DNA of 60,264 nucleotides, filler included, from Sphacelaria rigidula (GCA_964200075.2; 9 parts of 9 records of this genome joined end to end with filler, not necessarily neighbours in it); one strand, 5' to 3'. Positions 6,609 through 60,264 are shown, counted from the first letter of the whole stretch. Program-made: numbers and translations. The notes: generated by a model not told the origin, from the letters alone.

Positions 6609-6708
6609 NNNNNNNNNNNNNNNNNNNNNNNNNNNNNNNNNNNNNNNNNNNNTTAATTAATTAANNNNNNNNNNNNNNNNNNNNNNNNNNNNNNNNNNNN
6701 NNNNNNNN
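6609..6708. other. Artificial linker N44-TTAATTAATTAA-N44; also at 13317-13416, 20024-20123, 26731-26830, 33438-33537, 40145-40244, 46852-46951, 53559-53658
   Basis: Identical 100-nt six-frame-stop spacer every 6707-6708 nt; elements such as the Gypsy pol and SINEs are cut abruptly at the linkers. Confidence 0.99.
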
Positions 6709-12319: not shown

Positions 12320-14713
12320 CATCCCATGAGATCAGACAAACTCCAAGGCACGAATACCGGGATATATGGAAGACTCAGCAAGGAAAAAACAAAACCATCG
12401 AGGAAACTCGCCTCCTGTATTATGTGCCCCCCTGACCCCATATCATTTCACCATATTCGGGAGCACAAAATGTCAAATCTCGGGACGTGTATTTCCAAAA
12501 ATACCTCACAAAAATATGGCTCGAAATCCAAGATCAATAAATTCATCAACCAAGAAGAATCCGTCATATGCCATGATCCAAAAAAAAGTTAATATTGCCA
12601 AATCGATGGATCCCTCGACCTTGGAAACTCTTGAACTTCATGCCGAAACCCAAACTCACATGAAGGGAAAATTCCCACCATGTCGTGATCTCGGTGATAA
12701 TATGAAAACCGAGAGTGAATCACAACAATCGGACTCAAATCGAAGTGCGGTAAAATGCATGATACACTACACAGCTTAATAATGCCATCCCTACGCAAGA
12801 TCAAATCCATGTGTCTGGATTTTCACGCGGTTGAGGAGCGCGCCAGCTATTTTTACGCAAAACGATCCCCAACAAACGTCAAACAAATCCTTGCCAAGCA
12901 TTCCAATCGCTGTTGCGCATATGATGCCCACTTGTCAGATCACTGCACTCGGACAGTAGTCACATTGCTGCGCTTGTACTCAAAATCAGAATATCCAATG
13001 CATGAATCTACCATCAAGCTGAAGTGGTCTACAAATAAACAGTTGACAGGCCACATTCGGAGTACAATATCCTCCAAAACCAATCTCCGGCTTTCGGCAT
13101 TCTTCCATGGTCACGCGTCCCCCTCCTGCATCGAACCGGCACCTCATACTTGCTTCACTCCACCGGCATCATTTCCCTGCTCCAACCCATCGTCACCGCT
13201 CCCCCGTTCCGAGTCATTTCAACCATGTCGTAGGTTTTCAACCCATCGTAGTTTTGAGACCGCATGTAGCGGCCACGGGGGAACACAGAGTTTCTCCTCT
13301 ATGAAAATGCCAGTCTNNNNNNNNNNNNNNNNNNNNNNNNNNNNNNNNNNNNNNNNNNNNTTAATTAATTAANNNNNNNNNNNNNNNNNNNNNNNNNNNN
13401 NNNNNNNNNNNNNNNNCCCTAGAAAAAAGACGTGAGAAACAGTCTTCCGGCAGCAGGACGTCATATGTTGAATCGAGATCAATATCACTTGGAAAAAGTA
13501 TGCATGATCAAGATGCACTGCCTTCGCCATCCAAGGGTCAACAAGCGGGACGCCCAATCTTTATATGGGATGGGTTTGAGGTCGGCAGCTTTGGCGGCGC
13601 ACTACAGCACTTGTGCTCGGAACGAAATCGGGTCTACTGTTGTATATTGCGATAATTGAGCACCAAAAACCCACGCCACGAAAGCGAAGCAAAACTTGTG
13701 TGCGGAAAAAGTTGAGTCTGCGGCACACCGACCATACATGGAGGGATGGATTTTTTGTAGTGAAATGGAAAATTCAACCAATCAGAGGCCCTCCAGTGAG
13801 GTATCGGCGCAATCGAGCGCCAATGAAGTGCGACCTTTGTATAATAGTGAATTGATGTAGTGAAAAATACTTGTGATCGGCCCGCAGACTTGAGTCGCGC
13901 CGGGACGAACAGAGCAGCAGCAGGGAAACGAAGCAGCAAGCAGGGAAGCAGACAACAAGTTGCACATTGCTGCCGCAGGGGGTCAATGGTCATGGCAAGA
14001 ATTACAGCACACACCGATGCTTGTGTTTATCGGCGTATCTCCATCTCAGTACGACTGGTTGCGTCTTTCCGTGGCCGCGAGCCGTGGCGCCTGCCAGCAG
14101 CAGCTGCCGCCAAGTTGCCGGGTGCGATCAGTACCCTGGCGATGCAGTATACCCGCCCTGTGCTGTGGTTTGCTCTTTTCAGCGGAGCACGGGGTCTGGC
14201 CCAACGGGTCCACGTTGTGTGTCTTTACTCAGCCATGTTTGGCATTGTGCAAGTGATGGGTCTGGGCAGCCCCTTATTCTTTTTACGGAGGACAAAACAG
14301 CCTACACACCATGGAGTTTCAAAGTCTTCAACAGCCAGTGTGGAAACATCACTGCGTGGCGACTGACCGTATTTTTTACAGAGACGAACACGACGACGAA
14401 ACGGCAGCTCATGCAATCGTAGCGGAGACCAAACCGTCTGCGCAAGGTCTAAACACGCCACAGAACAGTGATAGCTAAAGGACACGAGAGAAGGCATGAG
14501 TGTGTCTGTGCTGCAGGATAGTGAAGCAGGACATGTCCCATTATTCAGTTCTTCGCCTGGTTATAAACGGATACTAAATATTGGCCGCTCCGCGCAAACC
14601 ATTTATTCGAGTGGAAAATCATTCCCATGTATGGGTCCTGTGCCGAGTGTGCAGCAACCAAGACTTCGGCACATATCTGTACATCTGACAAGTTCGTTCT
14701 CCTCCGACAGTAT

Positions 14714-20023: not shown

Positions 20024-20124
20024 NNNNNNNNNNNNNNNNNNNNNNNNNNNNNNNNNNNNNNNNNNNNTTAATTAATTAANNNNNNNNNNNNNNNNNNNNN
20101 NNNNNNNNNNNNNNNNNNNNNNNC

Positions 20125-23928: not shown

Positions 23929-25771
23929 GCTTTACTATCTATCAAGAGCCGTTCTGTGTATGTGATATAAGGCATGTGTCTAGAGCTAGAGCCAGGGGCT
24001 GCTGCTGTGGAGTGGTGTTTGTCTGCTCTCAATCATGTTGCGTTTCAAACGAAGTTATTTTCGCCGCATTCTTCGCCGACAAAGCACTTGGCGTTTGCCT
24101 GCTCGTTGCGGTCTCGGCGTGTTCTGTTGATTGCACTTACTCTTTATAGAGGTCCTGCCTGTACTGTTAGGGGTGCTAACCGGGGCCAAAATATAGAGGA
24201 AATTTTTGCAAAGAGTGTACAGGATCTTCCTGTTGGAAAATCGCACAAGCCAATGAGATGGGAATGATCCGCCCGGTCGAACGGCAAAGAAGCGAATGGG
24301 CCGCCCGGTCGGTTAGGAGAGAATGCAAAAGGCCATCTGCACCCATGACACGCACATCTTCCTGCTGCATTGCATCGCCCATTCGGTCTGTTCATCTTTC
24401 ATTTTTACATCAAAACTGTGACAATACAACAGTGATCCACCCTGGAGGTGCCCGTCTGTATGGGTCGAGGCAGAGGAGATCGAAAACACACAGTACAGGA
24501 CAGAGTGCAATGCTTTATATTACAGTAGGGTGTTGTCTTCTCTCTCCCACCCGTTGAGTTCGTTCCGTTTGTCCATAGGTATCACCCACTAAGGATCAGA
24601 TTACACGAAACCTTCCGACACCGCCATCCCTTCCTGCCTTCAGTTTAAAAAAAAAGCCCTTGATCTACGGTGGGTATTCATTTTTGAAGTAAATAGTACG
24701 CCCATACAAACACAACTGACCCATCATGAGGCGGCTGCTGTCTGGAAATGGATAAAGCCGAAGTGCAACAGCATCGGATTAGTCCTTTGGAGAGCGCCAC
24801 TCTTCCCTGCCGCTCCCGTGAAAGTGACGCTTGATCGCCAGGGTGGTGTCTTGTGTTCATTTATCAAGTCAAAATCTCTGGAGACGGTCGCCTCTTCCTT
24901 TCTACAATAATAACCGGCTCTAAAGTTGAACTCTCAGAGCGCCTATTGGATCATCTGGGTTTTGCATTCATTTTTCAAGTGAAAAGTATGCCAATACAAT
25001 ATAAGCCTGACCCTGGGGTGAATAGAGGGTGAGTGACACATGTCCGTGTATTCACGACATACAAGCTCAAGTCTCAGCAGACGGAGGATATAGAGGCGGT
25101 ACGGCAAACAGGGCGGTACCAATACAACCAACACCGCAGGCGAAGAGGAGAGCACAATTTAATTCGGCCATCATGATGTTTTCTATCCCAGTACACGCCA
25201 TGCTCTTAACCTTGGGTTCCTTGCGTGGCTGTGTACAGAAGCGACGGAGCTCTTCTCAACAGAAAATTCCTGAGTGTATCATGTTTGCACAGGCGCACGC
25301 ACCGAACAAAAGTTACTCCGCGACCGATTGAGACCTGCCTCTCGACGTTTACCCCGGAGCCCCTTTTGCCTGTGATTATTTTTCACTTGTATGTGTTCGG
25401 GTACACCATCAAGGGGTAGGTTTTTTCCGGGCGGTTCTCCACGTTCACGTGCGCGATTCGAGCGCCGTTGGTTGCGTTGGGTGCTCCCAACCCCATTGCG
25501 ATGCACTGCAGTGCCCATTTCAGGGCACGTCCTGCGGTCAGATCATGAATCCGGAAATTATATTCAAATTTCATTTTTTTTCGGGTTGAGGATGCACGAC
25601 TTCAAAGCTGGAAGATAAGGCCGCGGCCATGGGCTGCATGTGGATGGTCAGCAACAGGATGTAGGGGGTGAACAGGGAGAGTGTTGCCTGCGCGCGCGGT
25701 CAACCCGTCGAGAGATTGGACTGTAAATGCAAGTGTATTTGGGCGGAGCATCCCAGGACAAGAAAGGAAAA

Positions 25772-26730: not shown

Positions 26731-27203
26731 NNNNNNNNNNNNNNNNNNNNNNNNNNNNNNNNNNNNNNNNNNNNTTAATTAATTAANNNNNNNNNNNNNN
26801 NNNNNNNNNNNNNNNNNNNNNNNNNNNNNNGAGAAACCGGTTTGTGGACACCATTTTTCGATTTTCCTCATTCTCGACCACCCCTGAGGGGGGGGGTGTA
26901 CTCATGATTATGCATGCCATAGTCATCAGACCATTGACCTCGCAGGGGGGGGGGGATATATACCGTTTACCAGTCTGCAAGGCCCCTTGGTCTCAAGGGA
27001 TCAAACCACCTTTTTTTCTTCCCGCACCTCACCTTGTTTGCACCTTATTTGGTTTATTGTGTTGTTCTTGTCATACTTCATGAATAACCCTTCCGTTCCT
27101 CGGGACGGATCCATAGTAGTCTCGAGGGATCAAACCGTTTTTTTTTTGTCCTGGCACCTGATTTTGTTACGTCGATATTTTTTGCCATTATTCGTAATAT
27201 ATA

Positions 27204-27374: not shown

Positions 27375-27549
27375 TACATAGCCCTCCCCCTCATCGGGGC
27401 GAACCCTCGGTCTAGAGGGATCAAACGCTTTTTTGTTGTTGTCCCTGCACATTGTTCATTTTTTGTATTTCTCTCGTCGCAATTTGAAAATACGATCTCC
27501 CACTTCTTTGGGACGAGACCGCAGTCTCGAAGATATCAATCCCCCCCCC

Positions 27550-27928
27550 CTCGAAAGGGATGCGTGGTCAATGGTCAAATGACTAAGGCAAGCAACAAAT
27601 GAGTACGCCCCCCCCTCCCTCTAGGGGTTGCCCCCCCTATGGGGTCGGCGTCGGTTGGCGATGACGCTCTAAAACACGCCACCCACTGCGTAAGCTAGGC
27701 AACTCATTGGAGTCTGTCGTCCATATGCAAGATCACTGGGGTGCTTCGGGCCGAACAATCTTGGCAGGATGCAGCTCACCCTTCATGCGATTCGACGAAC
27801 ACATCATAACCCTTTGCGCTTGGTGATTGGAAGACCGGTCTGGCGAAAAGCCGGCGTGCTCCGCCCCGGCTTTGCAAGGATACAATGCCAAGAGTCATAT
27901 GACTACCGCATGCATGATCATGGGTACC
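27550..27928 (+). mobile_element. Family F LINE 3' end (27550-27606) followed by a family A copy (27637-27928)
   Basis: Both end in ATG(A/G)GTAC followed by C-tracts. Confidence 0.8.
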
Positions 27929-29132: not shown

Positions 29133-29512
29133 GCCGGTCGCCGCAGTGGCTCAGTTGGCAACCTTAAAACCTTCTGACGGTTACGACGTGGCTTCGACAT
29201 TCGGTGAACTCACACGATCTGGGAAATTCCCGTCACATCACGCTCGACCGTAGAGAGCAATCATGTAGGTACAGATATAGACCGCTGAACCATTCTCGTG
29301 ATGAAAAGAACAGGGCAAGCACCGCAGAAGGAAGGTGGAATACTACCGTTGAAATATAGAAGAAACTAGTGTATTGACCTACCTTCCTTCTGTGTGACCC
29401 CGGCTGATGCCTCCACGTGTACTGAAAGGTGTAGATTAGCGCCCAGAATATAGGGATGACAACACACACGCACACACACACACACACACGCACAACCGCA
29501 CACACGCACGCA
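29133..29512 (+). mobile_element. tRNA-derived SINE with (CA)n tail
   Basis: Head GCCGGTCGCCGCAGTGGCTCAGTTGG (A box), degenerate B box, body matches the 16967-17383 copy. Confidence 0.82.
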
Positions 29513-29587
29513 CTTGTCTGCATGGAGCTATGTCATGTACTTTACTCCCCCCCCCCCTCCCCCCTCCGAACTGAATCGAATGATCAG

Positions 29588-29758
29588 AGAGGTTATGACG
29601 GATGTCTTCCTGGCGTCCACCTCTTTTGTGACGGACTTCAGCGCTCTGTTCGTGGCTTGGGGCCAACTGATGTCGTTTGATATGTTTCTCACCGAGGACA
29701 ACGTGGCGGAGCCGTTCGACGTGGACTGCGACGATGGCGGAGGGTTCGCCGACGTCTG
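29588..29758 (+). CDS. Animal-type heme peroxidase-like (peroxidase-cyclooxygenase superfamily) protein, exon
   Basis: EVMTDVF...FSALFVAWGQLMSFDM...ADVW; CAG acceptor and phase-2 GT donor that joins in frame to 32301. Confidence 0.8.
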
Positions 29759-29879
29759 GTGACCGAACCAACTCAGAACCTTCAGCATTTTGTTTTCTCG
29801 CAACATTCGAGTTTCATGGTGGGAAACACGTACACAATATGACGAACAACGTTCCATGTTTCACCGGAAGTTGCATTTG

Positions 29880-32170: not shown

Positions 32171-32300
32171 GTTAAATGAGTCGCTTTTCTAAAAACGGTG
32201 AGAGGTCTCCTAATAACTGAAACCTGGTAAATATTCTGTGCCCCCGTACCGTGGTATGACTCTCAACTACATATACCGCTTCCTGCTCCTGTTGTTGCAG

Positions 32301-32526
32301 GTGTCCGCTGGGTGAAGCATCGGACCCCATATCGTTTGATCGATCTAACGCTACGGTGAATTCCACGGTAAGGAGTCCCACGAATTACGCCACCGCTTAC
32401 CTGGATCTGGATTTCGTGTACGGTCGAAGCGAGGAGGAAGCGGAGTCATTGCGTACACTGTCGGGTGGAACAATGCAACTCTCCGACTCGGGCATTCCCC
32501 TGCAGAATACGGACGGCACTTGGTTG
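32301..32526 (+). CDS. Heme peroxidase-like protein, exon
   Basis: TTGCAG| CPLGEASDPISFDRS...RSPTNYATAYLDLDFVYGRSEEEAESLRTLSGG...WL |GTGAGC; N-x-x-T-x-YLD-x-x-x-VYG motif. Confidence 0.9.
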
Positions 32527-32853
32527 GTGAGCTGTCTCCTTGTCTACCTTTTTCTGTACCCTTTTTCCCCCGTCTGTGTGTGTGTCTCTCTCTCCCTCTC
32601 TCCTTCGTGTCTCAGTGTCGGCCTCATCTGTCTGTCTATGTCCATCCCTGTCTTCGCCCTTGTCTCCGTTTCCCCCCCTCTCTCCGTCTCCGTCTGTCCG
32701 CCTTCCTCTCCGTCTCCCTCTCTGTTTCTTACGACTACCCCCGTCTCGGAAGGGATGCATGGTCAATGGTCAAATGACTCAGGCAAGCAACAAATGAGTA
32801 CGCCCCCCTCCGTCCCCCCTCCCCGTTATACGTCCGCTTCTATCACACAATAG

Positions 32854-32973
32854 ATCGCGGATCAGAGAAGTGCCCGCTTCCCGGTCACGTTTGCCCTGCA
32901 CTCCGTACTGCTGTCGGAGCACAACCGTTGCTGCGAGGAGGTAGCCCCAGACCTGGGCTTCACCACGGACGAG
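32854..32973 (+). CDS. Heme peroxidase-like protein, exon
   Basis: TAG| IADQRSARFPVTFALHSVLLSEHNRCCEEVAPDLGFTTDE |GT; D-x-R and EHNR motifs; in phase with previous exon. Confidence 0.9.
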
Positions 32974-33194
32974 GTGTGTATATTTCTGCATGAGTTCGTG
33001 CACATGAAGGTATATTGTGTATGTACCTACATATATGTACACATGCAATTTTCAACCATTTTCCCTTTTGTTGATGAACTTCGCACATAAACAAAGAATG
33101 CCTTATCACCTCTTTTTTCTCGCTGTTTTTCTCCGTTGGTGTACTCTTGTTCTGTTTTTTCTTAAATCCCTCCACTCCCCCTTGACGGCGAAAC

Positions 33195-33359
33195 AGGACG
33201 GGGATAAGACATGTAACAGGTTTTTACGTAATGTGTGGAAGAAACATAGTGAGCACCGGAATATTGGAGAAGTTTCTACCAGGAGTAGGAACGGTGCTCC
33301 GTCCCGAAAGGGATGCGTGGTCAAAGGTCAAACGACTAAGGCAAGCAACAAACGAGTAC
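33195..33359 (+). mobile_element. Family F LINE 3' end (short copy also at 32742-32801)
   Basis: DGDKTCNRFLRNVWKK...KASNK reading, ends GAGTAC. Confidence 0.75.
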
Positions 33360-33537
33360 GATGATCAAGGCTATCGTCGAACGTGCTGTCGAATTCGATT
33401 CTTTGCACACTGGACAAAACACTGGTCTCCCCAGACANNNNNNNNNNNNNNNNNNNNNNNNNNNNNNNNNNNNNNNNNNNNTTAATTAATTAANNNNNNN
33501 NNNNNNNNNNNNNNNNNNNNNNNNNNNNNNNNNNNNN

Positions 33538-33754: not shown

Positions 33755-35039
33755 TCCCTCATCGCTTGAAACCACAACTCCGGTTACACGCTGGCTTAGG
33801 CCACCGCACTCAGGTCACCCCATGAACCTCACGCCCCGCCGTACGGCATGGATGGTGTTGTTGGTATGCACGCGATGAAGATCGTGTAGAACCTTCAAAG
33901 AGCTCCGCGTCAGTGTAGAGGGCACCGGAGCAGGTGTGTGATGTTCGTTCTTGTGTTAAAACGTTCATTGGTTGTTATCCGTTGGAGTATATGACAAGAG
34001 TACCAGACGGTATTGGTTTCTAAATACGTACAGATTTTCGGTGAGATCTGACTTTGTGCTGCCTGCGACATCATCGCAGACTGCGTGTCTTCGGTTGCCA
34101 ACCCACCAAACGCACGCCCTGTTCTTTGACGTGAGTGATGGCGTCGGGTCAACGGTCTAGGCCTGGAATAGGTTTGAAAGCACGTGCGGCGGCGTACAAA
34201 AGCACTACCCCTCTGCGAATTCCACACACACGACGTATGTGGTCGATCATGATGTACGTGTGCGTGACGACTTCAAGCGTTCGAATGCGTGATTGCATCG
34301 TTTAAATATTACGTGAAGACCGGAAGGGAGGGAGAAACAACTCGGGGAGAGAAGTTTGCCCGAGTACACACCCCAGAACTGTAGCTAACTCTATCCTCGC
34401 GATGGGTTGGTGATTTACGAGCAGAGTTCGTCAAGCGTACAGTATGTTCCCCCTTGAGAACATCGAGGTCGGAGCGTATTATGTGCCCCATAGCATCTCT
34501 GGTAGACAAGCCTGTGCCGGATCATCAGGACAGTGCACCATAGATGGTTTTAGTAGGCTCTTCAAACACCGCTCCGAAAAAGCTGCGCTGATTCCAGCAG
34601 TTGTCGATCCATGCTCTAAATGTCTTGTAGTACGTACAATATGCTTCCCCTCACTTCAGATTCATGATAGATGTCCGTTTTTGTTTTCAGACACCGTAGA
34701 GCACGCCTGATCTTGCCCTTTTATTTATCCCAGGGTTTTTTACTTGTTCCGAGTTTTTCTACCGGATACTACACGCTTAAGCTGAAGCTTCTCCGAATAT
34801 CTCTGGCCCAGGCATTCCAGTTTCCTCTTCATTTCATGCGCACGGTGATTCAAGGTTTGTGTTTTGGTGACTTTTCGGATTATCGCGGCTACCTCTTTTT
34901 CTTTTGTGCGTGTTCGCTCTCACTACCCTCCATGCTACCACTCCCGATATAGTTCCCATGTTTCCGAAGGTGCGTCACCATGCTCCATCGAATTTTTATG
35001 CAAAGTCTAGATACGGCCAGCCCTCCTTCGCCCCTCCGT

Positions 35040-39840: not shown

Positions 39841-40335
39841 GATAGCGATTCGTTTTGAAACATATTTCCACATCACAATGTCTTCGAGTAATCGACTGCC
39901 GATCACACACACATACATATATACACAAGAGCGTGAAGGAAAGTGTAGAGAGTGTAACCAGTACTGTACGAAGCGCTTCAAGGTGAGTTCAGCTGTAAAC
40001 ACCCCGATGGCAATGTGTGTGATGCTGTATCGCATACCCATGAATTCCACCTTTGATATCTCAAAGGGACCCCTTCCTACAACATTTGGCTTTAACCTAA
40101 CCTGCCCCCCCCCCCGCCCTTTGCCAAGTCTCCAGGGGACGGGGNNNNNNNNNNNNNNNNNNNNNNNNNNNNNNNNNNNNNNNNNNNNTTAATTAATTAA
40201 NNNNNNNNNNNNNNNNNNNNNNNNNNNNNNNNNNNNNNNNNNNNCCTTTCTATTTTTTTTTTTTTTGTTTTTTTTTTTTTCCCGTTTCTCCGCGGGTGGG
40301 GTTGGGTGTGTGGTGGGGGGGGGGGGGGGGGGGCG

Positions 40336-40500
40336 TACTCATTTTTTGCTTGCCTTAGTCGTTGACCATTGACCACGCATCCCTTTCGAGACGAAGCACC
40401 GTTCCTACCCATAATAGAGACATCTTCAACATTCCGGCGCTCATCACGTTTCTTCCATATATTGCACAAAAACCTTTTACATATCTTATCCCCGTCCTCG
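40336..40500 (-). mobile_element. Family F LINE 3' end
   Basis: DGDKICKRFLCNIWKKR..., ends ATGAGTAC + poly-C; C-rich on both flanks. Confidence 0.8.
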
Positions 40501-43250: not shown

Positions 43251-43299
43251 CTGCGGTAAATTCGAACGTGGAGTAGCGGGGGGGAGGGGGGGGGGGGGC

Positions 43300-43445
43300 A
43301 TCTTTGTTCCTTGCCCGAGTCGTTTGACCGTTGACCACGCATTCCGTTCAAGACGGAGCACCGTTCCCACTCCTATTAGAGACACCTCCAACATTTGGGC
43401 ACTCAATACGTTTCTTCCATAAATTGTACAAGAATCTTATACATA
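43300..43445 (-). mobile_element. Family F LINE 3' end
   Basis: RFLYNLWKKR..., followed by poly-C on the minus strand. Confidence 0.7.
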
Positions 43446-46792: not shown

Positions 46793-46951
46793 CCTGCTGC
46801 TGTACATCATGTGTCCACTGCTATCCACTGGAAACTACCGTAAGTTGCTTGNNNNNNNNNNNNNNNNNNNNNNNNNNNNNNNNNNNNNNNNNNNNTTAAT
46901 TAATTAANNNNNNNNNNNNNNNNNNNNNNNNNNNNNNNNNNNNNNNNNNNN

Positions 46952-49400
46952 ACTTCAACGTGAAGCTGTAGGAAGACAGGATTTCAAACCAGCGTTGAAC
47001 CCGGGCGTTGTGTTCCGCCATTTTGGCGAGGTTTTCCAAAGACTTATGGTCGGTATAAATCACAAACGGGAGGTCATAAAAATATTGTCGGAGCCGGCGC
47101 ACTCCCCAAACAATTGCACCGGCTTCTTGTTCCATGACGGACCAATTCCGTTCGTTTGGGTAGGTGGTTCGGCTCAGATGTACAATGGGGCGAACACTAG
47201 CATCGTCTTGTTCCTGTTCCAGTGTGCGGCCAAACCCAACTTTCGAAGAATCCGTGTGCAGTCGGAACGGACGGGAGCCATTTTCAGCAGCTGACCAGTC
47301 GGGAAAAACCAGAATTGGCGGCTTCGACAATGTGTCGAGCTGCTCTAGTACAATTTTTTCCATTGCCGACGTGAACACGAATTTCACCCCCGTCTTGAGG
47401 AGGGTGAGGGATTTTAGAGCTTGGGCTAAATTTGGCAGATATTGGCGGTAGTAACTCAAACCACCGAGTAAAGAGCGCAGTTGAGAGACATCGCGTGGCA
47501 TGGGCATCTCTCTAAGTTCGGCAACTTTGTAGAGGTTGGGGCTACGACCGTCAGGGCTGATACAATGGCCTAGGAACTCGATGCGTGTGGCTCCATTGCG
47601 GGATTTAGATGAGGCGAGATTCAACTTGTGTTGTTCAAAACGAGCAAAGAAGGACGCCAAATGTTTGACGTGCTCAGTAGGTGTACTGCCGTGAACCACC
47701 GCATCGTTGAGGTACATACGGCATTTGGACAGTCCATCAATGACGCGAAACATCACACGTTGAAACGCTCCTGGGGCGCCGGCGGCACCTTGTGGAGTGA
47801 CCAGTCACTCATATAGACCTGACGGGGTGCAAAACGCCGTCAGCTCGATAGAGTGCGGATCCATCACCAGTTGGTGGCAACCGGACTGCATGTCGAAGTT
47901 CGAAAAAGAATTGCCCCCGCCGATTGAGTCGATGATTTCATCTATCCGGGGAAGAGGTAGACGTGCGATTTTGGTGACTGCGTTCAATCGTTGATAATTG
48001 ACGGTCAGTCGTATCTTACCATTCTTCTTCCGGACGACAACCAAAGGCGAGGCCCACGGAGACGCTGAGTGCCGTATTAACCCGGCGGACAAGTATTCGT
48101 CGAGAATTACTTGAATTTTACTTGCTAGAAGAGGGTTTGTACGGTACGGACGCATGGCGATAGGTGTCGTACCATCGGGAATGTTGATTTTGAACGGTAT
48201 AGCGTTGCAGCGGCGTAAATCCGTTGACGATTTGGAAAACCGTTGAGAATATCGTATCAAGATGGAACGCAACCGATCAATCACCGTGGGTGTCCAACCT
48301 TCACCAGATGAATCAAACGCAATGTGTCTCAAATGGGGGGGAATCTCATCCCATAATCGTGGAAAACTAACACGTTGCTCTGGCGAGAATGTATCTAGTA
48401 AGGCAGTCGGAGGGTTTGTGTGAGGCGCATCAATCGATTCGTCTACAACCATGGGTCAGTCTTGTCGAACGAAGTGGAACCGTGTGTCTCGGAGCTGTCT
48501 GATGATGTTTGCGGTGGCACCTTCAGACATACACTCGACAAGGCTGCCCGTAGGAGGGGCGCTTGAGCAAAACCCAACAACTGACCAGGGAGGACATCGA
48601 GACATGCAGAGGACGTGATGGGTATGAATTGCCGACCCTCATGCACAAATACATCGGTCTGATCGAAGGGGGGAATACTGTCTGGGGTTTGGTGGGGATT
48701 GGTTAAGTCGACCAAGTACTGTCCAGTGAGGGCGGGGGATCCGTTCCGTCTCACCAGATTCACATGAATGTGTTAAGGTTCACGGGACAGAGAGACGACG
48801 TGGTTTCCAACATAATACCGTCGAAAAGCATCACCTGTTTGTGTTGGGTCGTCGACATAGGCCTGAGCCCCTGGATCAGCGTCGTGATGTCCCAATTGCA
48901 ATCTTCCTGTCAGTGGTCGGGTCGAAACAGGTGAGTTTGTCGTGTATGTATGTGTGGAAAAACGTTCCAGCTATCACGTCCCAAGAGAACATCAACCGAC
49001 ATGGAACCATCGGGCACAATGAGTGCCCACACAGCTAATTGTGCAGTGGGACCCGTGTCATCGAAGAATTGCACACTGAGTCGTATTGATTGATCAACCG
49101 TAAGGGGAGTGGAGGCACCAAACCCGCCAAAAACACGAGGCGGAACAGTAGGGAAGGCAATGTTTACCTGCTGCCCCAGCGTTCATCATGTGTTGCCAGC
49201 AGCTGGCTGTGATGAAAGTGTGTGGCGAGCCAGTGTCGGGCAGGGCAACGGCCATCAAAGGGCGTGTTGCATGCACTCCACTATGTATACCTATTCGGTT
49301 TGTGAAGGAGGCGTCATCCGTGAGTGCAGTTCCACTTACCAAGTCCGGTCCGTATTCCGACAAGTGATCTGCAGCCACATCGCTCTTGTTTTGTTGGGCA
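46952..49400 (-). pseudogene. pol: Gypsy pol (protease, RT, RNase H)
   Basis: ALPDTGSPHTFI (PR); SPWASPLVVVRKKNGKIRLTVNYQRLNAVT, LPRIDEI, YLND in place of YLDD (RT); HTDSSKVGFG, ERNWSVMEQEAGAIVWG, YTDHKSL (RH); in-frame TGA at 47805 and frameshifts. Confidence 0.95.
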
Positions 49401-50943: not shown

Positions 50944-53658
50944 ATCAACAGACATACAGTGTCACCAGCGCAACAGCGTATTAACAAACCTGCATGCCAC
51001 GAAGGAATAGACGTATCGGATGAAGCGAACAGTAACGTCAAACCGTTCAGTGTTATTTTGAGACACGTTCAAGCTGAGAAAAAAAATAACTACCGAATGC
51101 CGTGTCTAGAGGCAATACCAGCGCAGCTGGCGATACTGATTATAGTACCGCGTAGGTCGCTGAAAATGGCCCCGAGTCGGGGGTTGATGACGTATCATCG
51201 TGCAGGTGAACAGTCAATAAATGTACAAGCCCAACCGTAATACAAATATGTAGTGCAGTACAACAGCAGCGTACAAAGCACCAGACAGCAAAATGCACGG
51301 TGGCACACTACAGTACATGTGATCTTCGCGTGGGGTAGCGGAGGGTCGGGTCAACGATGCTGTACCGACGTCAATTCTTTCGGATTATACGCAGAACACC
51401 CGACACCCGCTATATCCGCGCCGTGTTCACATGTACAATGCGATATAGATGAGGTGCAGATAGTACAGCAGTAACAACGTATACACACCACGGCACCTCG
51501 CCGTCCGCAACATTTTGCCCGCCGAGACCATTTGGAACTCACACACGCAGGACCGTGAGAAGAGGGTGGTACTGTAGTGTTATCACGGATGTTTGGTTCA
51601 CATACATTGTACAGGGTGGGGTCGGATGATGTACAGTCAACACCCAGGTTGGGCACAAAAAGAATGTGCTGCACGGTGAGCATATTTTGAGACAGCAAGA
51701 GACGGTCAACATTAGCTACTGAAGTATAAAAGGCCGGCGGTACATGCGGCGGGGTGGGTGTAACGAAAGGATGCGCGCTGATACAGTGCCGGTGATGGTA
51801 GAAAAGAGTTGGTGGCTGATAGAGTACGAGCAGCTTATGTAGGAAGAAATGTAATGGGGCAGGGGAGTCACGGTATAATTGGACTCTACATGGTGACTCG
51901 CATCCGCTACAGAGTAGATGCGTATCATTACTGGGGCAGTTGCCACAGATAGGCAGCTGGAACGAGTAGGTGAGGATGGTGGGAGGGCAAGTGCTATTGC
52001 TCGCGTACGTTCGCGTCCGAGTCGGCGCAGGGTGCGAGCGTCTAGTGTATCAGAGGCCCTTGAACTCATATCGCCAGGGATAGATGACAGAGCAACAACT
52101 ACAGACGGCTAGACGATGAACAAACAAAAGAGACGCGCATGCAAGGCACACAGTGGTGGTGTAGTGTACACGGCAGCTCGGCAGTCTGAACACAACGCAA
52201 CTAAAAACAAAAGGACAGCAGAGGCAGTGAGGGAGCTCCAACTGTGATGAGATAAGAATGAAAGCACCTGGTGGAGGTTGCAATGGCGTTCACCAAGAGT
52301 ATTCCAGGTTCAGACCTCTGCGTACGTTGTTTGTTTACTCAGCAGCGCGAGCTGACCACAGTCGCTCTCGTGTTGTTTTCACACAAGGAGACAACAAGCA
52401 ATTACATACAAGAGTAGCACTGTATTTGTTTCACACAATTGATTGTATCCGAGCTTCATCTACAGCTCAGTTACAGAACATAAATACAACACAAACCGAA
52501 ACAGGCCTAAGCTTTAATCAATATAACACACCAGACAAAACAGCAGCCCGACTACTGCTCTTATCTCTGGGACTCACTTTCTCGCGGTTTGTAGATACTC
52601 CAATGGTGAAACTGGTGAATCGCAGCCAAAACCCGAGATGAGATGAGAGAGTGATCGTAGGGGCTGCTATTTTGAACGCCCTTCGCCGCCCCCTAGATCA
52701 ACATAGCTAAGGTCATACCATACAATCCAAAAAGGCGTGCTCGTCAATTCATGCCATGGTTGGGTCACTACCTTTTATCGAATTCAAATACATGCTCTCC
52801 GTAGAACGTCAACCTCAAGGAGCAGCGAATTCTCCGTTAATTGAGCATGAAAATGTCCATCATTCAATGTCACTTTTGCCCAAGATCATGGCTACGTCCT
52901 GCAGTCACATCATATCACACATGTCAGAACACGAAAAACATATTTTTCGAACCTCGTTCACTTCATAGACACTAGAGAAAATTTGTGTACCAGTACACTC
53001 GTTCATTTGACAACGACTTGTACTGCGAATATCCTATCAGGGAGAGACTCGGAAAATAAAACCAAACTCTGTGAGCACAAAAAATATTTCTACCAAAATT
53101 AGCGGTTGATCAGTCCACTTCATTTCGAATTACTGATCTTTGATGCAAATTTCTCTCGTTATCCGGCTCGATAAATTCCCAAAACCGTCAAACTCATCAT
53201 CCCACTCTTAAAACATTTGCTCTTTCACAAAACAATCAATCCCTGTACGCCAAAGTCCAAATGTATACAAAGAAGTCAAATTAGGAGTTACTCTGCATAA
53301 ACAGTGCTACCACCCCAAATATATCAGGACGGATATTACTCCTTGAATAAACGCCACACCCTGAGAGAACATGAAATAAATTGCTCCGTATTAAAACGCC
53401 CTACCCCTCGATTCAATACTACATATTGATGCGCAGGGAGTATTGCTTCCAGGTGCTACATGAAAACATAACGAGTCATCCTACGATAGGGGGCGGGCAT
53501 TTTGGGCCACAAAAAAAAAAAAAAATCGAGTCAGATCGTCGTTGAAAGCAGCAACGGTNNNNNNNNNNNNNNNNNNNNNNNNNNNNNNNNNNNNNNNNNN
53601 NNTTAATTAATTAANNNNNNNNNNNNNNNNNNNNNNNNNNNNNNNNNNNNNNNNNNNN

Positions 53659-53811
53659 AGCGCCTCATATTGGCGACATTGGCTAGAATGAACCTAAGCG
53701 TGGGAATTCCCAGCTTTCCGTTGTGCTAGGCTTTTCCCATTTCAATTTACGTGAAGATTTTGTCTCTCAAAACCGTGCACTTTTGGGGGGGGGGGGCTAT
53801 CGTAGAAAGTG
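53659..53811. mobile_element. Partial copy of the 28599-28857 MITE family
   Basis: GCGCCTCATATTGGCGACATTGGC...GGGGCTATCGTAGAAAG. Confidence 0.7.
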
Positions 53812-54228
53812 TCAGGAGATGGTGTTGAATACTTGAATAGCCGTTGATCACAGTTGGGGGAGGTGGCATGAAGTAGTTGGGGACACATCGGCACGGGAGA
53901 ACATCATGTCCACCAGGAGAATCTCCGGCATGAGCTGTCGCGTTTAAGCCGATAGATGGCGTGACAGTGATCAACGGTGCACCCCATCCCCCGTCTGCCC
54001 CCCGACCCCATGCCCAACGTCATTATCATCTTGCATGCACGTCATGTGCAGGGTTAGTGTTCACATTACATTAATGCCCATCCCGGGTCCTACAAAGAAA
54101 TGAAAATGCGTGGTGCAGCCCGCGTGGAAGCTATTGATCCGAATGCGGTGGGCTGCGACGAAGCCCTCGTGCTCGCGAAACCAGAAGCAAGGCGATAGCG
54201 AGGCCTCTTGAAAAGAAATTACACTCAC

Positions 54229-54392
54229 TTGTCCGTTCCGTGCGTCACTGTCGAGCACATGGGTAGCGCGAACGTCGTTTGATTGGCCGCATCTGCTTGG
54301 AGCGACACGCATTTCAGCGGGGTCAGCTCCGCCCTCGCCCGACGTGCCGCGCCAGCGATGTTGGCGAGATATTGTCGATCCCGATCGACTCT
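54229..54392 (-). CDS. Sola/DUF7869-like transposase, exon D
   Basis: TCGCAG| RVDRDRQYL...RRARAELTPLKCVSLQADAANQTTFALP...GTD-AA |GTGAGT; resembles S-x-x-IDG-x-DQ-x-x-F-x-LP. Confidence 0.75.
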
Positions 54393-55386
54393 CTGCGAAG
54401 TGTTGGGGGGGATAAAGCGGGAGAGGATCGAGACGAGATGAACGCGGCCATCTGTAGAAGGGGATACGGCGGCAGCGGGGTAGGGATTGGGCGGGTGCGA
54501 CGACACTTTCGGTGGACCACAAGTTATTTTATACTCCGACCCCTCGTACACGGGTGTGTTGTCAGCTTCAGGGTTGGGTATGACCAGCGGCTTGAACGCC
54601 TTGCGACACGTGAGCAAAACATTCTCCAAACTACAAGGTACGCAGTTCGAACGGTACGAACACTGTCACCACACGTCGAAGCAGACCCGTCTGTCGCACG
54701 AAGCGAGGGGCCTTGCAGAGTGTACCTTTTCATGCACTCCGCGCCCCCCCCCTCCCCCACGGGCGGTCGAGAAAGACAATGAACTGGGGCCGTGCACTGG
54801 CTGCTCTGGCCAGTTAACTTCAAACTGGCCGCTGGCGCGCCCAGTACATCGAGTGTTTTCCAGTTAATCGGCTTCACCGATTGACGGGAAAACAATCATC
54901 GGCGAGCGGCGACGCCGTCAGCTGCCAACGGCCCTCCCCGGCTGGTGAGGGGGTCCCGCGGGAGCGCCGCCGCAGGCGATAAAAATTGCGGTATTCAGCT
55001 CGTTTTTTCTTCAATAATGTGGAAAATTGTACGGAATGTGACCCCTCGCATTGAGCAGCCAAACGTCTTGGGTGACACAGGAGTGCCCGACAAAAAACTC
55101 TCCGGAATCCGACGTACTCTCCCCCCTGCGGCGGTCTTACGATTGTTTGTTTTTTCATGGGGAAACACTCAATAAATAGCCATTTCGGGGCGACTTCGGT
55201 GACGTGGCGCCCATGACTGTTGGCCGTATCTGCCACCAAAACCTGCGACGCACATTGGGTGCAAGTCGACTGTGCAGCTAGTTGCGTCTAGCCTACTTGG
55301 GCAAGCCCCTTTTTCCTCTGTGGTATTTGTCTGGTCTTGTTGTCGTGGAAGTGTGATGTGCGATGTATCACCGAAACCCACGAATA

Positions 55387-55591
55387 TTGACTGATTGACT
55401 GATTGACTGATTGATTTGATTGATTATCTCACATTAGCTGATTGCAATAATCCAGCCCGTGGTCGGGAGCAGCGAAAATAGAGCAGAATAATAAAAAAAT
55501 AAAATGAAGCAAGAAAGGAACAGAAAAACGACAGAAGCAACGGCCTCAGAAAGGAAAGAAAGGGGGCAGCGATAACAACAACAAAAACACC

Positions 55592-55640
<49 letters not shown>

Positions 55641-55885
55641 ACAACAACAGACAATAGCAGAAACGAACAGCTGTAACAACAAAATAACGACAAACACAAA
55701 GACAAACACAAGCACGAACAAAGGCAAAAAGAATGATGGTCGTGCATTACGTAGCTGATTGCAACACTCCAGCTCGTAATCAGAAACAACAAGGAGAAAC
55801 ATGAAACAAACGAGAGAAAAATAAAAGAAAGGAAAAACAAATAATGATAGAACGTAAAAACAAAATAATAATAGAATGTTAAAAA
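55387..55885. repeat. Compound microsatellite / A-rich tract: (GACT/GATT)n, (CAC)n, (CAA)n
   Basis: Directly visible; source of the poly-V/poly-C ORFs. Confidence 0.9.
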
Positions 55886-56141
55886 AAGGGAATACAATAG
55901 ACAAGAAGACAGAGCCAGGCTCGTTCCGGCAGCGGGGGGGGGGAAGGGGGGGGGAGCACAGAATATACATTACTTGGCCTCACTTGGCTCCGAAGCTATA
56001 CGAAAACAGAAAGCTTCATGAACACGAATTTTAAGGTTTATATACTGCTCATCTATTTTATTTTGTTTTGTCTATTCCTCATTTATTTGTCTATTCCTCA
56101 TTTATTTCATCATTTAGTGCCCGCCCCCCCCCCCTCCCACC

Positions 56142-56200
56142 GTCTCGAAAGGGATGCGTGGTCAATGGTCAAACGACTAAGGCAAGCAACAAATGAGTAC
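56142..56200 (+). mobile_element. Family F LINE 3' end with C-rich TSD
   Basis: CCCCCCCCTCCCACC occurs immediately before and after the insert. Confidence 0.85.
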
Positions 56201-57280
56201 TCCCCCCCCTCCCACCGGCAAGACTCCAGGATTCAAACAAGGAGCATAGGGTCTCGGATGTTGTTTTTTGGGGAGGGCACTGTCGGATGACATTTAAATC
56301 CCATCGGAAGCATCTGTATTATGCAGCAGCAGACTGTCAGTGAGGAGAGGTTGATGCAAACAAGCCAAGGCTGGCAACACGCGGAGATAAGAGCGCAAAA
56401 TGATTGACGTACGGACCCACAATCACGCATGCGGTTGGATTGCAAGCCATGGGGTACTTGGTATTTTGTGGCCTCGGATAACCGTTTGTGTGCTATTTTC
56501 AACCCCAGATGTATGTCGTGCTATGAAACGAGCAGCCTGGCATACACCCGCAATATCACTTCAAGGTGCAATGACCACGAGTTCTGTACTGTACTGTCCG
56601 TACCTGTGCTGTTGTCAGGTGCAGTCCTATCGCCATTGTTCTTAGTAATCATGTGAGCATCTTTGTTGTAAACGAGCCATACTAAAAATGGTTTAAACAC
56701 AGCCGATAACTTCAAATAAACTCGATAAAGTGGAGTCCTCATCACCAGTGCCAGTGAAACACTTTTTAATTGCCAATGCAAACTGGTCCAGTTCAAAGCC
56801 CTACAAAATATCGGAAAATAATGTCCAAAAACATGTTTCTCCTGTTCCGGAACCACAACACGGAATGGAACGGTGTCTTCGCGTCAACGATGCTGGCCTG
56901 CACCCGTGCAGCCCAAAACCGGAGCGTTTGGACACACTATTTGTTGGAGCGGCCGCAGGAAATAGATGCCGGCCGTTCGATTATGATACGTGCGTCGCGC
57001 GTGGTTGCGTGGCAGAAAATAACGCCAAGCAACTGCAACGAATCTTGGAAATTACCCTGTGAAAAATGCTCGTGATTGCCTCGCATAATCGATTCACACC
57101 TATTGTGTTCGTCGTACGGTACGAGGGTGAACAGTGTCGCTGGGGCGAGGGCCGGTGAAAACAATATCCCTGTGTAATGCGTGAGAGGACGGCGTGCTTA
57201 GTGGACCGCGCCGTCGTTCAAAATACGTCAGGATCGACGTTTTGCGAACTCAATCGGATCAGTCCCTGCAGATACCACGC

Positions 57281-57325
57281 CCCTCACCCTAACCCCAACA
57301 CTAACCCTTACCCCAATCCTAACCA
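57281..57325 (+). repeat. Degenerate interstitial (CCCTAA)n-like repeat
   Basis: CCCTCA CCCTAA CCCCAA CACTAA CCCTTA CCCCAA TCCTAA. Confidence 0.65.
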
Positions 57326-58209
57326 CAGGGGAGTTCCAATTCCGATGCGATCCTCGGAGCACGCGGTCCTCCCATGCATTACATCTGAACTCACACTACC
57401 CCCCCCCCTCCACCGACAGCTCCGGATTTTGAATATTTTTTTCTCAAACGAGGCAAGTGTTTATCACCCTTTCGGGCGTCACCTGCTCAGCAAGACGTTG
57501 TCGAAACAATTCGCACGAGCCGTGCTTGGTTCGGTCGTGTGTTTCATGAATAAACTTGGATGGTGTGCAGTGGTTTGAGTAGTGTTGAGTGTTGCTTTCA
57601 ATATATTTATCAATAACAAAAGTGCTTTGATGTTTCAACATGATTCAAGTAAGCAAGGAAAAATAATCACGCCAAAAAAATAGCGCGGACCCTCCGGCGA
57701 CACCCCCTTAGTCACACTAGTGCGGCCGTTGCAGCGGTTGCTGCGGTCGCAGACGGGTGAAGAGTTTGTGGTTCGTCGCAACTGCCCCCCTCCCCCGCCT
57801 CGGTCTTTTGCCCCAAGTTATTCGTCTCGCGGTGTTTTCGCGAAAAAGTCCTTGGCTGTGCTTGTTCTGGTCTTGGGGTGCCGAACCGTAGTGATTTGAC
57901 TCACTTGTGTTTGCTACGATTGATTCATGATCACTTTGCATCATGCCAAGGATCCGGCGGTTTATGTTCGCTTCCACAGCGTGCTTCAAGCCCAAAACCA
58001 AACCAAACAAAGGTTCCGACCCAAATTTTGCCGGGGTGATTTTGCGCCATTTCATGTGCCTGGACTCAGTGTACCTCGGCTGCAACCCTAAAAGCAAAGG
58101 TTGAGGGTGCTTTCGCGCGGCACGAATCAACCACGAGTGCACGAAAATGGAGACATTTTCACACGAGGCATTGCTTCAAGAACATGCAATGCCCACAGCA
58201 TTTCCTCAC

Positions 58210-58449
58210 CTCCAGATGCTCCTTCTGCTCAGCTTTAACCGCCTCGACGATGGTGGGATCCTGTGTCGCCCTGACACCAGGAGTGCCGTTCAGGGTATCT
58301 TTGTACACGGTACAGGCGTGGCATTTCATGAACGTCGAACCGACCTTGGGCTGCAGCTTGGGTCGGTCCTCTCGCCAAACGCGATAAAAAAAAGCTTCGC
58401 TCGCAACTAATCCTCCCGTTTCCTGTCCTTTGTAAAGTGCATACAGCTC
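58210..58449 (-). CDS. Sola/DUF7869-like transposase, exon C
   Basis: CCGCAG| ELYALYKG...SEAFFYRVWREDRPKL...FMKCHACTVYK...KEHLE |GTGAGG; 80 codons, no stop. Confidence 0.82.
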
Positions 58450-59102
58450 CTGCGGGACGTACCGACCATAAACCCGACAAGGGATGATTTGTTATCGATA
58501 GAGGTAGGGTTGTACCGACGGCGTTGACACCCCCGTTGTACATCTTATGATAGTATCCTGCTGCTATATACCAGGATGACCGGCGCAAGCCCAGTCTCGG
58601 CCATCGACATATTCGTGTGATGATCTCCGCATCGACAATTCGTCCATTATATGACGTCAACGAATATCGGGTAACAGATACCTGTTCTCCAATCAACGTG
58701 GAGTTGAGAAGATTAAAAAACCAGGGGCACATGTACATTGTCCTCATGATGACAGTGACGTGCAACGGCGAGGCCCCTCGACTGCAGGTCTGACGGGGCT
58801 GCATCAACACGAAAATGAGTGCGAAAAACCGTTGTTGTACTGCTACGCAGGCTCGCCCGGGAAAGGAGCTGCAATGTACTGGCCCGGGTGAGAGCCGTGC
58901 GGAGCATCGAGCGTGGCGATCGAGCGGAAGAGTCAACGAGAGCCTTGCAGGTGCAATGAATATCAATCTAACATGAACTAAGGTAGACGTCGGGGTGTTC
59001 ATAGCTTGATCGAAGACGAAATGTTTGGGCCTAGTACAACGTCTGCGACAGGTGACACCATGCATTGCTTCGCACTTGATGTTGAACACCAGGACAACCC
59101 AC

Positions 59103-59229
59103 CTTCTTGCTTCGAAGGTAGAGGTACGTGGCGTCTCTATGGGGCATGTGCTGTCCGAAACTTGCGGCGAAGTGGTCGAGAAACGCCACGACGTGCTCGT
59201 GTCGGCTGCGTACCTGTGAGCTATCAGCC
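59103..59229 (-). CDS. Sola/DUF7869-like transposase, exon B
   Basis: ATGCAG|G ADSSQVRSRHEHVVAFLDHFAASFGQHMPHRDATYLYLRSKK |GTGGGT. Confidence 0.8.
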
Positions 59230-59819
59230 CTGCATGTCAAACACGTTGTAGGAGAAACGCCGACGGATTGACGTGGTGGGAGGTTAGACTGTACGGAGGA
59301 AGGTGGAATCAGCATCGTCACGGCACTCGGTCGATCGAAACTCGGTATAACGTGGGCTGCGCCGCTGTCATGCACTCATGGTCTGTCTGTACGGGCTTGA
59401 AGAGAGGGTGCTGTTGGCACGGCGATGTCGGCGTGCGGGATAGGTGCCTGTGCGATAGGTTGTGGGGGATTCAAATTTAAATCCCATGCGTTCAAATGAT
59501 GCAAGGGCTACGCGGTGAGGTTTGCAACACTGCGCTGGCGCTCGGGAAACATTAGTGACACCGCGACCCCATTGCTTCGCCGTGAACTTGTGCTGACTGC
59601 AGAAGTTGTGCACTTTTGTGAGGAGCTGCACGCCGCCATGATGGATCGGTGTACGCGCTGCGACCCAACTGCACTCATGAAAGCATGCCGGCCACATGAA
59701 CATCGACCAGCACTGGAAACAATGTATCCATTTTTAAACATGACCCCTGTTCCGGTCAACAACGACAGGTGAGCACCGCAGAACGACGGCGAAGTACAGT
59801 GCTCAAAACAAAAACAAGA

Positions 59820-59960
59820 AAAAGCTTTTGGGTTGACCTTTCCCCTGTGCGCCCGCCGGCAGGTACGCCCAGATACACCGAAAGGTGTACACCGGCGTGC
59901 AGGCGTCCAGAATAGATGAGACGATAAGCACCCGTGCACACACCCATACATACACGCACG
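59820..59960 (+). mobile_element. tRNA-SINE 3' portion inside transposase intron A-B
   Basis: ATACACCGAAAGGTGTACACCGGCG...CCAGAATAGATGAGAC plus CA-rich tail. Confidence 0.7.
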
Positions 59961-60072
59961 ACCCCGCGTGATCGGTGTAACAATTACAGTACACAACGAG
60001 CACGGGCGACGGGTACAGCCTGAGTAGTTGGTCTCGATCCCGCAGAACACTGTAAGTCATGGCACGACATAC

Positions 60073-60264
60073 CTGTTGAGGACTACCGAAGACCGTGGGT
60101 TCCTCTTCGCGGACTCGATGGTGTTGTGCGACACTCGGAACGCGAGTGCGAAAAACGAGTTACAAACCAGCTCGTTCGCCGCTAGCATGGATCCCCGATT
60201 TTTTCTGAGCTTCACAAGCGGCACCTGTCGACTCACCCAATCGAGCCTAGCGCGGCATGACCTC
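60073..60264 (-). CDS. Sola/DUF7869-like transposase, exon A (open to window edge)
   Basis: RSCRARLDWV...ELVCNSFFALAFRVSHNTIESAKRN...LN-AG |GTATGT; VC-x-x-FF-x5-VS motif. Confidence 0.78.

Follow-up and report, generated by a model that had tools for sequence, protein, structure and literature searches.

A four-exon gene on the minus strand

The locus described here lies at one end of a stretch of 60,264 nucleotides (nt), filler included, from the brown alga Sphacelaria rigidula (GCA_964200075.2), which we call the window. It is a split gene on the minus strand and, judged by its sequence and that of its relatives, it is probably the 5' part, four exons and no fewer than 240 codons long, of an intron-bearing brown-alga transposase gene of the DUF7869 family, most likely a truncated and non-autonomous remnant. 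An earlier note, made from the raw sequence, had proposed a chain of four minus-strand exons (60264-60073, 59229-59103, 58449-58210 and 54392-54229). When the model was rebuilt from these coordinates, the borders, the phases and the open frame were all confirmed. The exons measure 192, 127, 240 and 164 nt; AG stands directly upstream of exons 2, 3 and 4 (the upstream flank of exon 1 is outside the window), and each of the four is followed by GT (GTATGT, GTGGGT, GTGAGG and GTGAGT, respectively). The joins have phases 2, 0 and 0, exon 4 ends in phase 2, and the spliced frame runs through 240 codons with no stop, the remaining two frames containing 7 and 10 stops. Every peptide motif that the note had listed is present in the joined peptide.

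Exon 1 (60073-60264) is open at the window end and its coding sequence runs further upstream, so the start of the gene lies past 60264. It ends in phase 2, and its peptide contains RLDWVSRQVPLVKL followed by GSMLAANELVCNSFF. Intron 1 (59230-60072; 843 nt, GT..AG, donor GT at 60072-60071) separates it from exon 2 (59103-59229), which encodes HEHVVAFLDHFAASFGQHMPHRDATYLYLRSKK, and intron 2 (58450-59102; 653 nt, GT..AG) leads to exon 3 (58210-58449). The latter comprises 80 codons with phase 0 at both ends, reads ELY..FFYRVW..FMKCHAC..HLE, and constitutes a conserved module with C-x-x-C and a His further on; its columns F21, W25, F40, M41, C43, C46, T47, G55, G58 and H78 are invariant or nearly so in the family. 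Intron 3 (54393-58209; 3817 nt, GT..AG) is enlarged by repeats. Exon 4 (54229-54392) ends in phase 2, reads RVDRDRQYL..SLQADAANQTTFALP..THGTD and carries, in the motif DAANQ, the predicted first catalytic Asp of the family. Its donor GTGAGT (54223-54228), if read unspliced, gives K and then immediately TGA, the open reading frame (ORF) ending as ..THGTDK*.

Each exon is unique in the window, where tblastn returned self matches only and all else at E>0.29, and each exon by itself matches brown-alga relatives, in the correct order (tblastn, E 1e-7 to 6e-11). Exon 1 matches residues 76-124 of P0056 (49% identity, E 3e-6) and 102-164 of P0051 (E 3e-6), exon 2 matches residues 166-205 of P0051 (E 1e-5), and exon 4 matches residues 215-269 of P0056 (43.6% identity, E 1e-7) as well as P0005 (75.9% over 54 amino acids, aa). 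Judged by these ordered matches and by the end-to-end alignment of the joined peptide, the chain exceeds chance. An exon chain built by a reader from raw sequence can be right.

Relatives and family assignment

Exon 3 was searched with HMMER against 1.84 billion representatives of clusters at the 50%-identity level, with a cut-off of E<=1e-3, and gave 55 matches, 17 of them at E<=1e-10. Two (P0010 and P0043) turned out on reading to be bacterial-type repeat proteins and were dropped, which left 53 judged true. The named matches are all from brown algae: Sphacelaria rigidula (P0001), Pylaiella littoralis (P0039 and P0060) and Ectocarpus sp. 12 (P0051). P0001 spans the exon 2/3 join and is 90.7% identical over 86 aa. 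The joined peptide aligns over all four exons with Ectocarpus P0057 (40.2% over 249 aa, E 3.6e-48), and also with P0060 (35.2% over 250 aa), P0039 (35.4% over 229 aa), P0051 (32.9% over 213 aa) and P0056 (32.9% over 240 aa, E 6e-31). P0056, to which P0039 led, is the 850-aa product of Undaria pinnatifida g06018, and led in turn to P0057 and to the JGI protein P0058.

The profile search that the earlier note had proposed divided: the four exon peptides themselves found no Pfam match at E<=10, and the full-length relatives proved to carry PF25273 (DUF7869). In P0056 this domain occupies residues 278-456 with 121 bits (cut-off 26; E 5e-35), no other Pfam family matching the protein at E<=1, and in P0057 and P0058 it is recorded in the precomputed domain table. 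In the Atlas, 29 of the 30 named clusters closest to P0057 have DUF7869 as their single family set; with exon 3 alone, the DUF7869 cluster score was only 0.77. Since the DUF7869 domain begins just past the equivalent of exon 4, the family call holds by way of the relatives: the window peptide is homologous to, and collinear with, the region N-terminal to PF25273 in the proteins that bear it. The kinship with DUF7869 proteins, which the note had called from motif memory, is thus supported, indirectly, through those full-length relatives. Over its 240 residues the window copy is collinear with their N-terminal part and 33-40% identical to it (91% in the case of the Sphacelaria fragment), and it shares with them the C-x-x-C module and the intron positions where these are visible; the difference lies in the second and third acidic motifs, neither of which was found in the window. 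A word-index homologue search of longer proteins with exon 3 yielded no relative among 58 candidates, a single-protein metagenome scan none among 269 pattern matches, and a viral-contig scan with P0057 none among 512. Within the literature library searched, no paper names 'DUF7869'.

The Sola superfamily of DDD transposons was reportedly described by Bao, Jurka, Kapitonov and Jurka in 2009. Sola elements are eukaryotic cut-and-paste transposons, and the likeness to them lies in the D..D..D layout of the full-length relatives. For the other superfamilies of brown algae (KDZ, EnSpm, Plavaka, Harbinger, piggyBac, hAT, MULE and Tc1) there are separate Pfam models, and P0056 matched DUF7869 alone. 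By elimination DUF7869 may correspond to Sola, and the Sola label is used here as a putative one.

Anatomy of the family and the DAANQ motif

In P0056 and P0057 the equivalents of the four exons follow one another as GSMxAANxxVCNxxF..FGVSxxxIxxAK, V(V/A)xFL....GQxMP...xYLY, YF..VW...P.LK.K..G.FM.C..CT......H and LQVDAANQSxFATP. The first of these segments is taken as a putative helix-turn-helix and is probably DNA-binding. Past the exon 4 equivalent come QKIY..GTGSN, IQMDNTVSENKNN and MVGHTHIQIDQ. The three acidic residues of the full-length relatives lie in DAANQ, QMDNT..NKNN and GHTHxxIDQ, and by their D...D...D spacing they are assigned to the core of a cut-and-paste transposase. An AlphaFold model of P0056, built on a six-sequence alignment, reached a mean predicted local distance difference test score (pLDDT) of 34, too poor for a fold search. 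In this low-confidence model the first two motifs close strands 1 and 4, and the third sits on the helix that follows strand 5, a placement that would fit an RNase-H-like fold and proves nothing. A profile search of PDB sequences gave no match.

The earlier note had regarded DAANQ as an atypical motif that left the catalytic status open. The same motif is found in P0056, P0057 and P0005 (Pylaiella has DAADQ), and because the full-length Ectocarpus and Undaria relatives share it, this concern falls away; DAANQ appears to be the usual first catalytic motif of the lineage. A full-length enzyme of the family would bind its element at the ends and then cut and paste it. We infer both the transposase activity of the family and the binding of DNA by its N-terminus.

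Splicing and transcription

None of the sequencing runs is recorded as RNA. Three (X6, X7 and X8) were guessed to be of this kind and one (X1) is DNA-like; their contigs were aligned to 53659-60264 with a likeness floor of 90%. We considered the 15 joints listed, beyond which there are 199 more; depth figures and thinly covered parts were not used. One joint, 54392->58210, skips 3817 nt bordered by CT..AC on the plus strand, i.e. GT..AG on the minus strand. It was seen in one contig of X6 (29 letters on the short side), two of X7 (21) and one of X8 (28), and in no contig of X1. Its borders are exactly those of intron 3 as predicted beforehand, which supports the splicing of this intron. Of the junctions for which the note had wanted RNA-seq reads, that of intron 3 was seen in contigs, and for introns 1 and 2 there are none among the joints listed. 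The donor of intron 1 is read through by contigs of X6, X7 and X8 (records 14, 22 and 30), and X6 record 15 ends at 60072. These data suggest that the locus, or a near-identical copy of it, is transcribed and that intron 3 is removed. Should the runs be DNA, the joined form would represent an intron-less copy.

Position and content of the introns

Of the 57 relatives that match the peptide, 40 stop matching at residues 183-188, that is at the end of exon 3, their own sequences running on for 1 to 140 residues, which is the pattern of genomic ORFs entering an intron. The exon 3/4 join is crossed by nine relatives, the exon 2/3 join also by nine, and the exon 1/2 join by five. On this comparison of sequences, the intron positions are old within the family and common to its diverged members, so that the brown-alga DUF7869 lineage keeps fixed intron positions across deep divergence. 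The lengths differ. In the source of P0006 only some 40 codons, with a change of frame, separate exon 3 from the equivalent of exon 4, from which its intron 3 would be about 0.1 kb, versus 3817 nt in the window. In the window copy, introns at these family-conserved sites have been enlarged by nested repeats.

The earlier note had reported microsatellites together with short and long interspersed nuclear elements (SINEs and LINEs) in the introns. The microsatellites are there: (AAC)n at 55574-55654 (26.7 copies) and (ATTG)n at 55386-55425, both in intron 3. A Pfam search of window ORFs gave no sign of a LINE or a reverse transcriptase in the introns, nor was a tRNA-derived SINE with a tRNA-like head detected there. 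Intron 3 contains in addition a roughly 75-nt dispersed repeat (56134-56216), bounded by long C/G runs, with further copies, 80-95% alike, at 26889-26944, 27542-27619, 32735-32808, 33299-33359, 40319-40393 and 43286-43356. Very many contigs of all four runs pile up on this repeat, which is possibly a very abundant short non-autonomous element. A 688-nt insert (54505-55192, minus strand), with the near-repeat CACCGAA(A)GT on both sides, also lies in intron 3 and is absent from another copy or allele (joint 54504->55193 in X7 and X1; X1 record 1). In intron 2, a 141-nt insertion or deletion at 58521-58661 is marked by joint 58520->58662 in X6, X7 and X1. A degenerate short telomere-like array of CCCTAA-type units was noticed at 57286-57324, inside intron 3.

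The missing catalytic core and the spacers

If the window is continuous, the catalytic core is expected below 54229 on the minus strand. It was not found by tblastn of P0056, P0039, P0051, P0060, P0057 and P0058 against the window; a hidden Markov model of the core, made from four relatives, gave only matches with E>1 on all six-frame ORFs of at least 12 aa; and a Pfam search detected no core in 126 ORFs of at least 100 aa from the whole window or in 143 minus-strand ORFs from 33.7-54.2 kb. The first Asp is present, and QMDNT..NKNN and GHTH..IDQ were not found in the window, with the caveat of the spacer at 53559-53658. The downstream exons with the second and third Asp, which the earlier note had hoped to retrieve, were therefore looked for and none was found within the window.

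Several candidates were considered and rejected. The segment 48241-48179 (minus strand) is off-frame within a Ty3/gypsy-like pol ORF. Two collinear matches, 34665-34724 (TVSENKN, a seven-residue identity to the ..NKN.. motif) and 34152-34301 (V-x-H-T-x-I-x-I-D-x-I), lie in the same frame of the minus strand; they have E values of 8 and 15, no Pfam support and stops around them, and the chance of such a collinear pair was estimated at about 0.1. Matches at 10.0-10.5 kb sit in Pro/Thr-rich ORFs, and the ORF 54093-54218, with Tnp_DNA_bind at E 0.005, is at chance level among 143 queries.

At 53559-53658, 570 nt downstream of exon 4, there is a spacer composed of 44 N, TTAATTAATTAA and another 44 N. 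It is one of eight identical 100-nt spacers (the others at 6609-6708, 13317-13416, 20024-20123, 26731-26830, 33438-33537, 40145-40244 and 46852-46951), which follow one another in steps of exactly 6707 nt; six 10-N runs occur elsewhere. The spacers look artificial, like a six-frame stop linker or a mask. At 20024-20123, a copy of a dispersed repeat goes on colinearly from one side of the spacer to the other, an argument for masks placed over continuous sequence. Of the seven copies of the 75-nt repeat, three are no more than 80 nt away from a spacer.

Since no exons with the second and third acidic residues were found in the window, the copy is most likely a truncated remnant of a large DNA transposon, one that keeps the N-terminal modules and the first Asp. 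We infer that the gene is truncated here and not interrupted by a sequence break.

Copy number

The family comprises 53 credible representatives at the level of 50%-identity clusters. One and the same site can be covered by several contigs of a single run (five in X6 at 58419, seven in X1 at 58116), and X1 holds both the form lacking 58521-58661 and contigs within that segment. Divergence of the listed contigs from the window amounts to 1.4 to 8%, with introns and exons affected alike. Contigs of X6 and X8, and none of X1, join 58971 to 59601 by way of four extra letters; they represent a variant copy in which 58972-59600, the exon 2 stretch, is replaced. These observations point to more than one copy of the unit. 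A transposon makes copies of just this kind, of the entire unit with its introns.

The note had taken the open frame as a sign of purifying selection and possible domestication. By a rough estimate, about one stop-creating change would be expected and about one third of the copies would stay open by chance; at a divergence of a few per cent, an open frame of 723 nt is therefore no good evidence of selection. Domestication had been expected to show as a single copy with no dispersed family, and what was found instead are the 53 representatives and the within-run variants.

A 125-aa ORF at 24180-24554 (plus strand) has a weak likeness to the family's Pylaiella proteins (31.6 bits against P0060, at most 22.3 in 30 shuffles). 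It has ..F-C-K-E-C-T.. near its start and, later, G-G..Y..RQ....H-S-T-G-Q-S, all in one frame and without introns. By this likeness it is possibly a second, decayed relic of the family.

Weighing of the explanations

Several observations weigh against a truncated DUF7869-family remnant. No ORF of the two Pfam sets reached the gathering cut-off of PF25273, and the fold of the core is unconfirmed. In exon 3 the window copy retains all ten residues that are invariant or nearly so, which is compatible with ongoing constraint. The short sides of the intron 3 junction, 21-29 letters, are under the 30-letter line, and that these runs are RNA is a guess; other contigs from them pass the borders of introns 1 and 2 unspliced (records 14, 18, 19, 22, 28 and 30). 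At 58419/58420, moreover, none of the aligned contigs of X6-X8 agrees with the window, so that an orthologue or a paralogue may be the source of the junction. Were the spacers joins rather than masks, nothing would follow from the missing core, and the An_peroxidase-like exons on the plus strand, described below, also stop before a spacer (33438).

The last two points bear on whether the gene is complete and possibly active, its core exons being hidden by breaks at the spacers or by a very long intron 4. The strong GTGAGT donor at the end of exon 4, the intact conserved residues of exons 1-4, the mere 570 nt from exon 4 to the nearest spacer and the similar halt of the peroxidase-like exons would all agree with such a gene. 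However, the colinear repeat across 20024-20123 and the exact 6707-nt steps fit masks over continuous sequence, and if the sequence is continuous there are 54 kb downstream without a core on either strand; we consider a complete gene unlikely. A transposase-derived protein selected for a cellular role, i.e. a domesticated host gene, could explain the 240-codon frame that stays open despite repeat-filled introns, the retained residues, the spliced junction and the conservation of intron positions across deep divergence. Yet the family has many diverged lineages, the variant copies within runs include intron sequence, as if whole elements had been copied, and a divergence of 2-8% would let the 723-nt frame stay open without selection. 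The gene is, in addition, incomplete in the window, lacking its core there, and the full-length relatives retain all three acidic motifs, like working transposases. Domestication thus appears highly improbable.

A different possibility is that the protein lacks a core on purpose: retention of intron 4 would end it with K and a stop, leaving an N-terminal, DNA-binding regulator of the transposon family. It would account for the in-frame TGA inside the exon 4 donor, for P0005 (66% identical, with exons 3 and 4 joined), which ends at the same ..HGTDK, and for contigs of X6 and X8 that are unspliced across this donor (records 8 and 23). But a phase-2 GTGAGT donor always makes such a TGA, P0005 may just end with its 716-nt contig, P0017 continues past the junction (..TDKG), and the unspliced contigs, from runs only guessed to be RNA, are about 8% different from the window. 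Such a design is, in our view, highly improbable. In the P element, a repressor is made by intron retention. A spliced mRNA of the present locus, or of near-identical copies, with its stop at the TGA of the exon 4 donor, might by analogy yield a core-less product of about 300 aa, in which the helix-turn-helix-like part is combined with the C-x-x-C...H module and with the core's first strand; this product would bind the element ends of the family as a putative repressor or regulator of transposition, or else serve as a DNA-binding factor adopted by the alga; we hold this to be very unlikely. If true and functional, the core-less isoform would be a first candidate for self-regulation of a transposon by intron retention in brown algae. 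The truncated, intron-bearing DUF7869-family transposase gene remains the explanation that we prefer.

Relation to known transposons

Giant DNA transposons of Ectocarpus (Sola-1, KDZ and EnSpm) exceed 10 kb and hold nested insertions of other elements; their intron-containing genes were curated by RNA-seq, and the transposases are frequently pseudogenised (PMC12477816). Among them, Sola1-1_Ec32 is given there as 21.5 kb long with 282-bp imperfect terminal inverted repeats (TIRs) and a 4-bp target site duplication (TSD) (PMC12477816; 2025). Compared by description, the locus resembles the Ectocarpus elements in having a multi-exon transposase gene that spans many kb and contains nested repeats, and it would fit the picture of giant nested brown-alga transposons. 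As to differences, neither a TIR or TSD nor a ParB-methyltransferase accessory gene was detected within the window, beyond which the 5' end of the locus is situated.

Beyond annotation the significance is small. The brown-alga family is now annotated as 'unnamed protein product', and its members would better be masked or labelled as transposon-derived.

Other elements in the window

Three An_peroxidase-like ORFs on the plus strand (29460-29759, 32260-32850 and 32854-33087) are collinear with profile positions 50-99, 127-183 and 213-242 (Pfam, E 0.004, 1e-9 and 0.026, respectively). Past the spacer at 33438 no further peroxidase exons were found among 124 plus-strand ORFs of at least 45 aa. The segment 47808-50786 (minus strand) is a broken Ty3/gypsy-like pol remnant with ORFs in several frames; its part at 47808-48455 looks like the beginning of a reverse transcriptase (weak RVT_1 match, E 0.007, and a motif pattern recognised by eye). 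A 154-aa ORF at 4344-4805 (plus strand) matches the DUF7769 helix-turn-helix at E 4e-7, above the cut-off, has weak matches to transposase-type helix-turn-helix domains, and is probably a remnant of another DNA transposon. The region surrounding the locus is repeat-rich.

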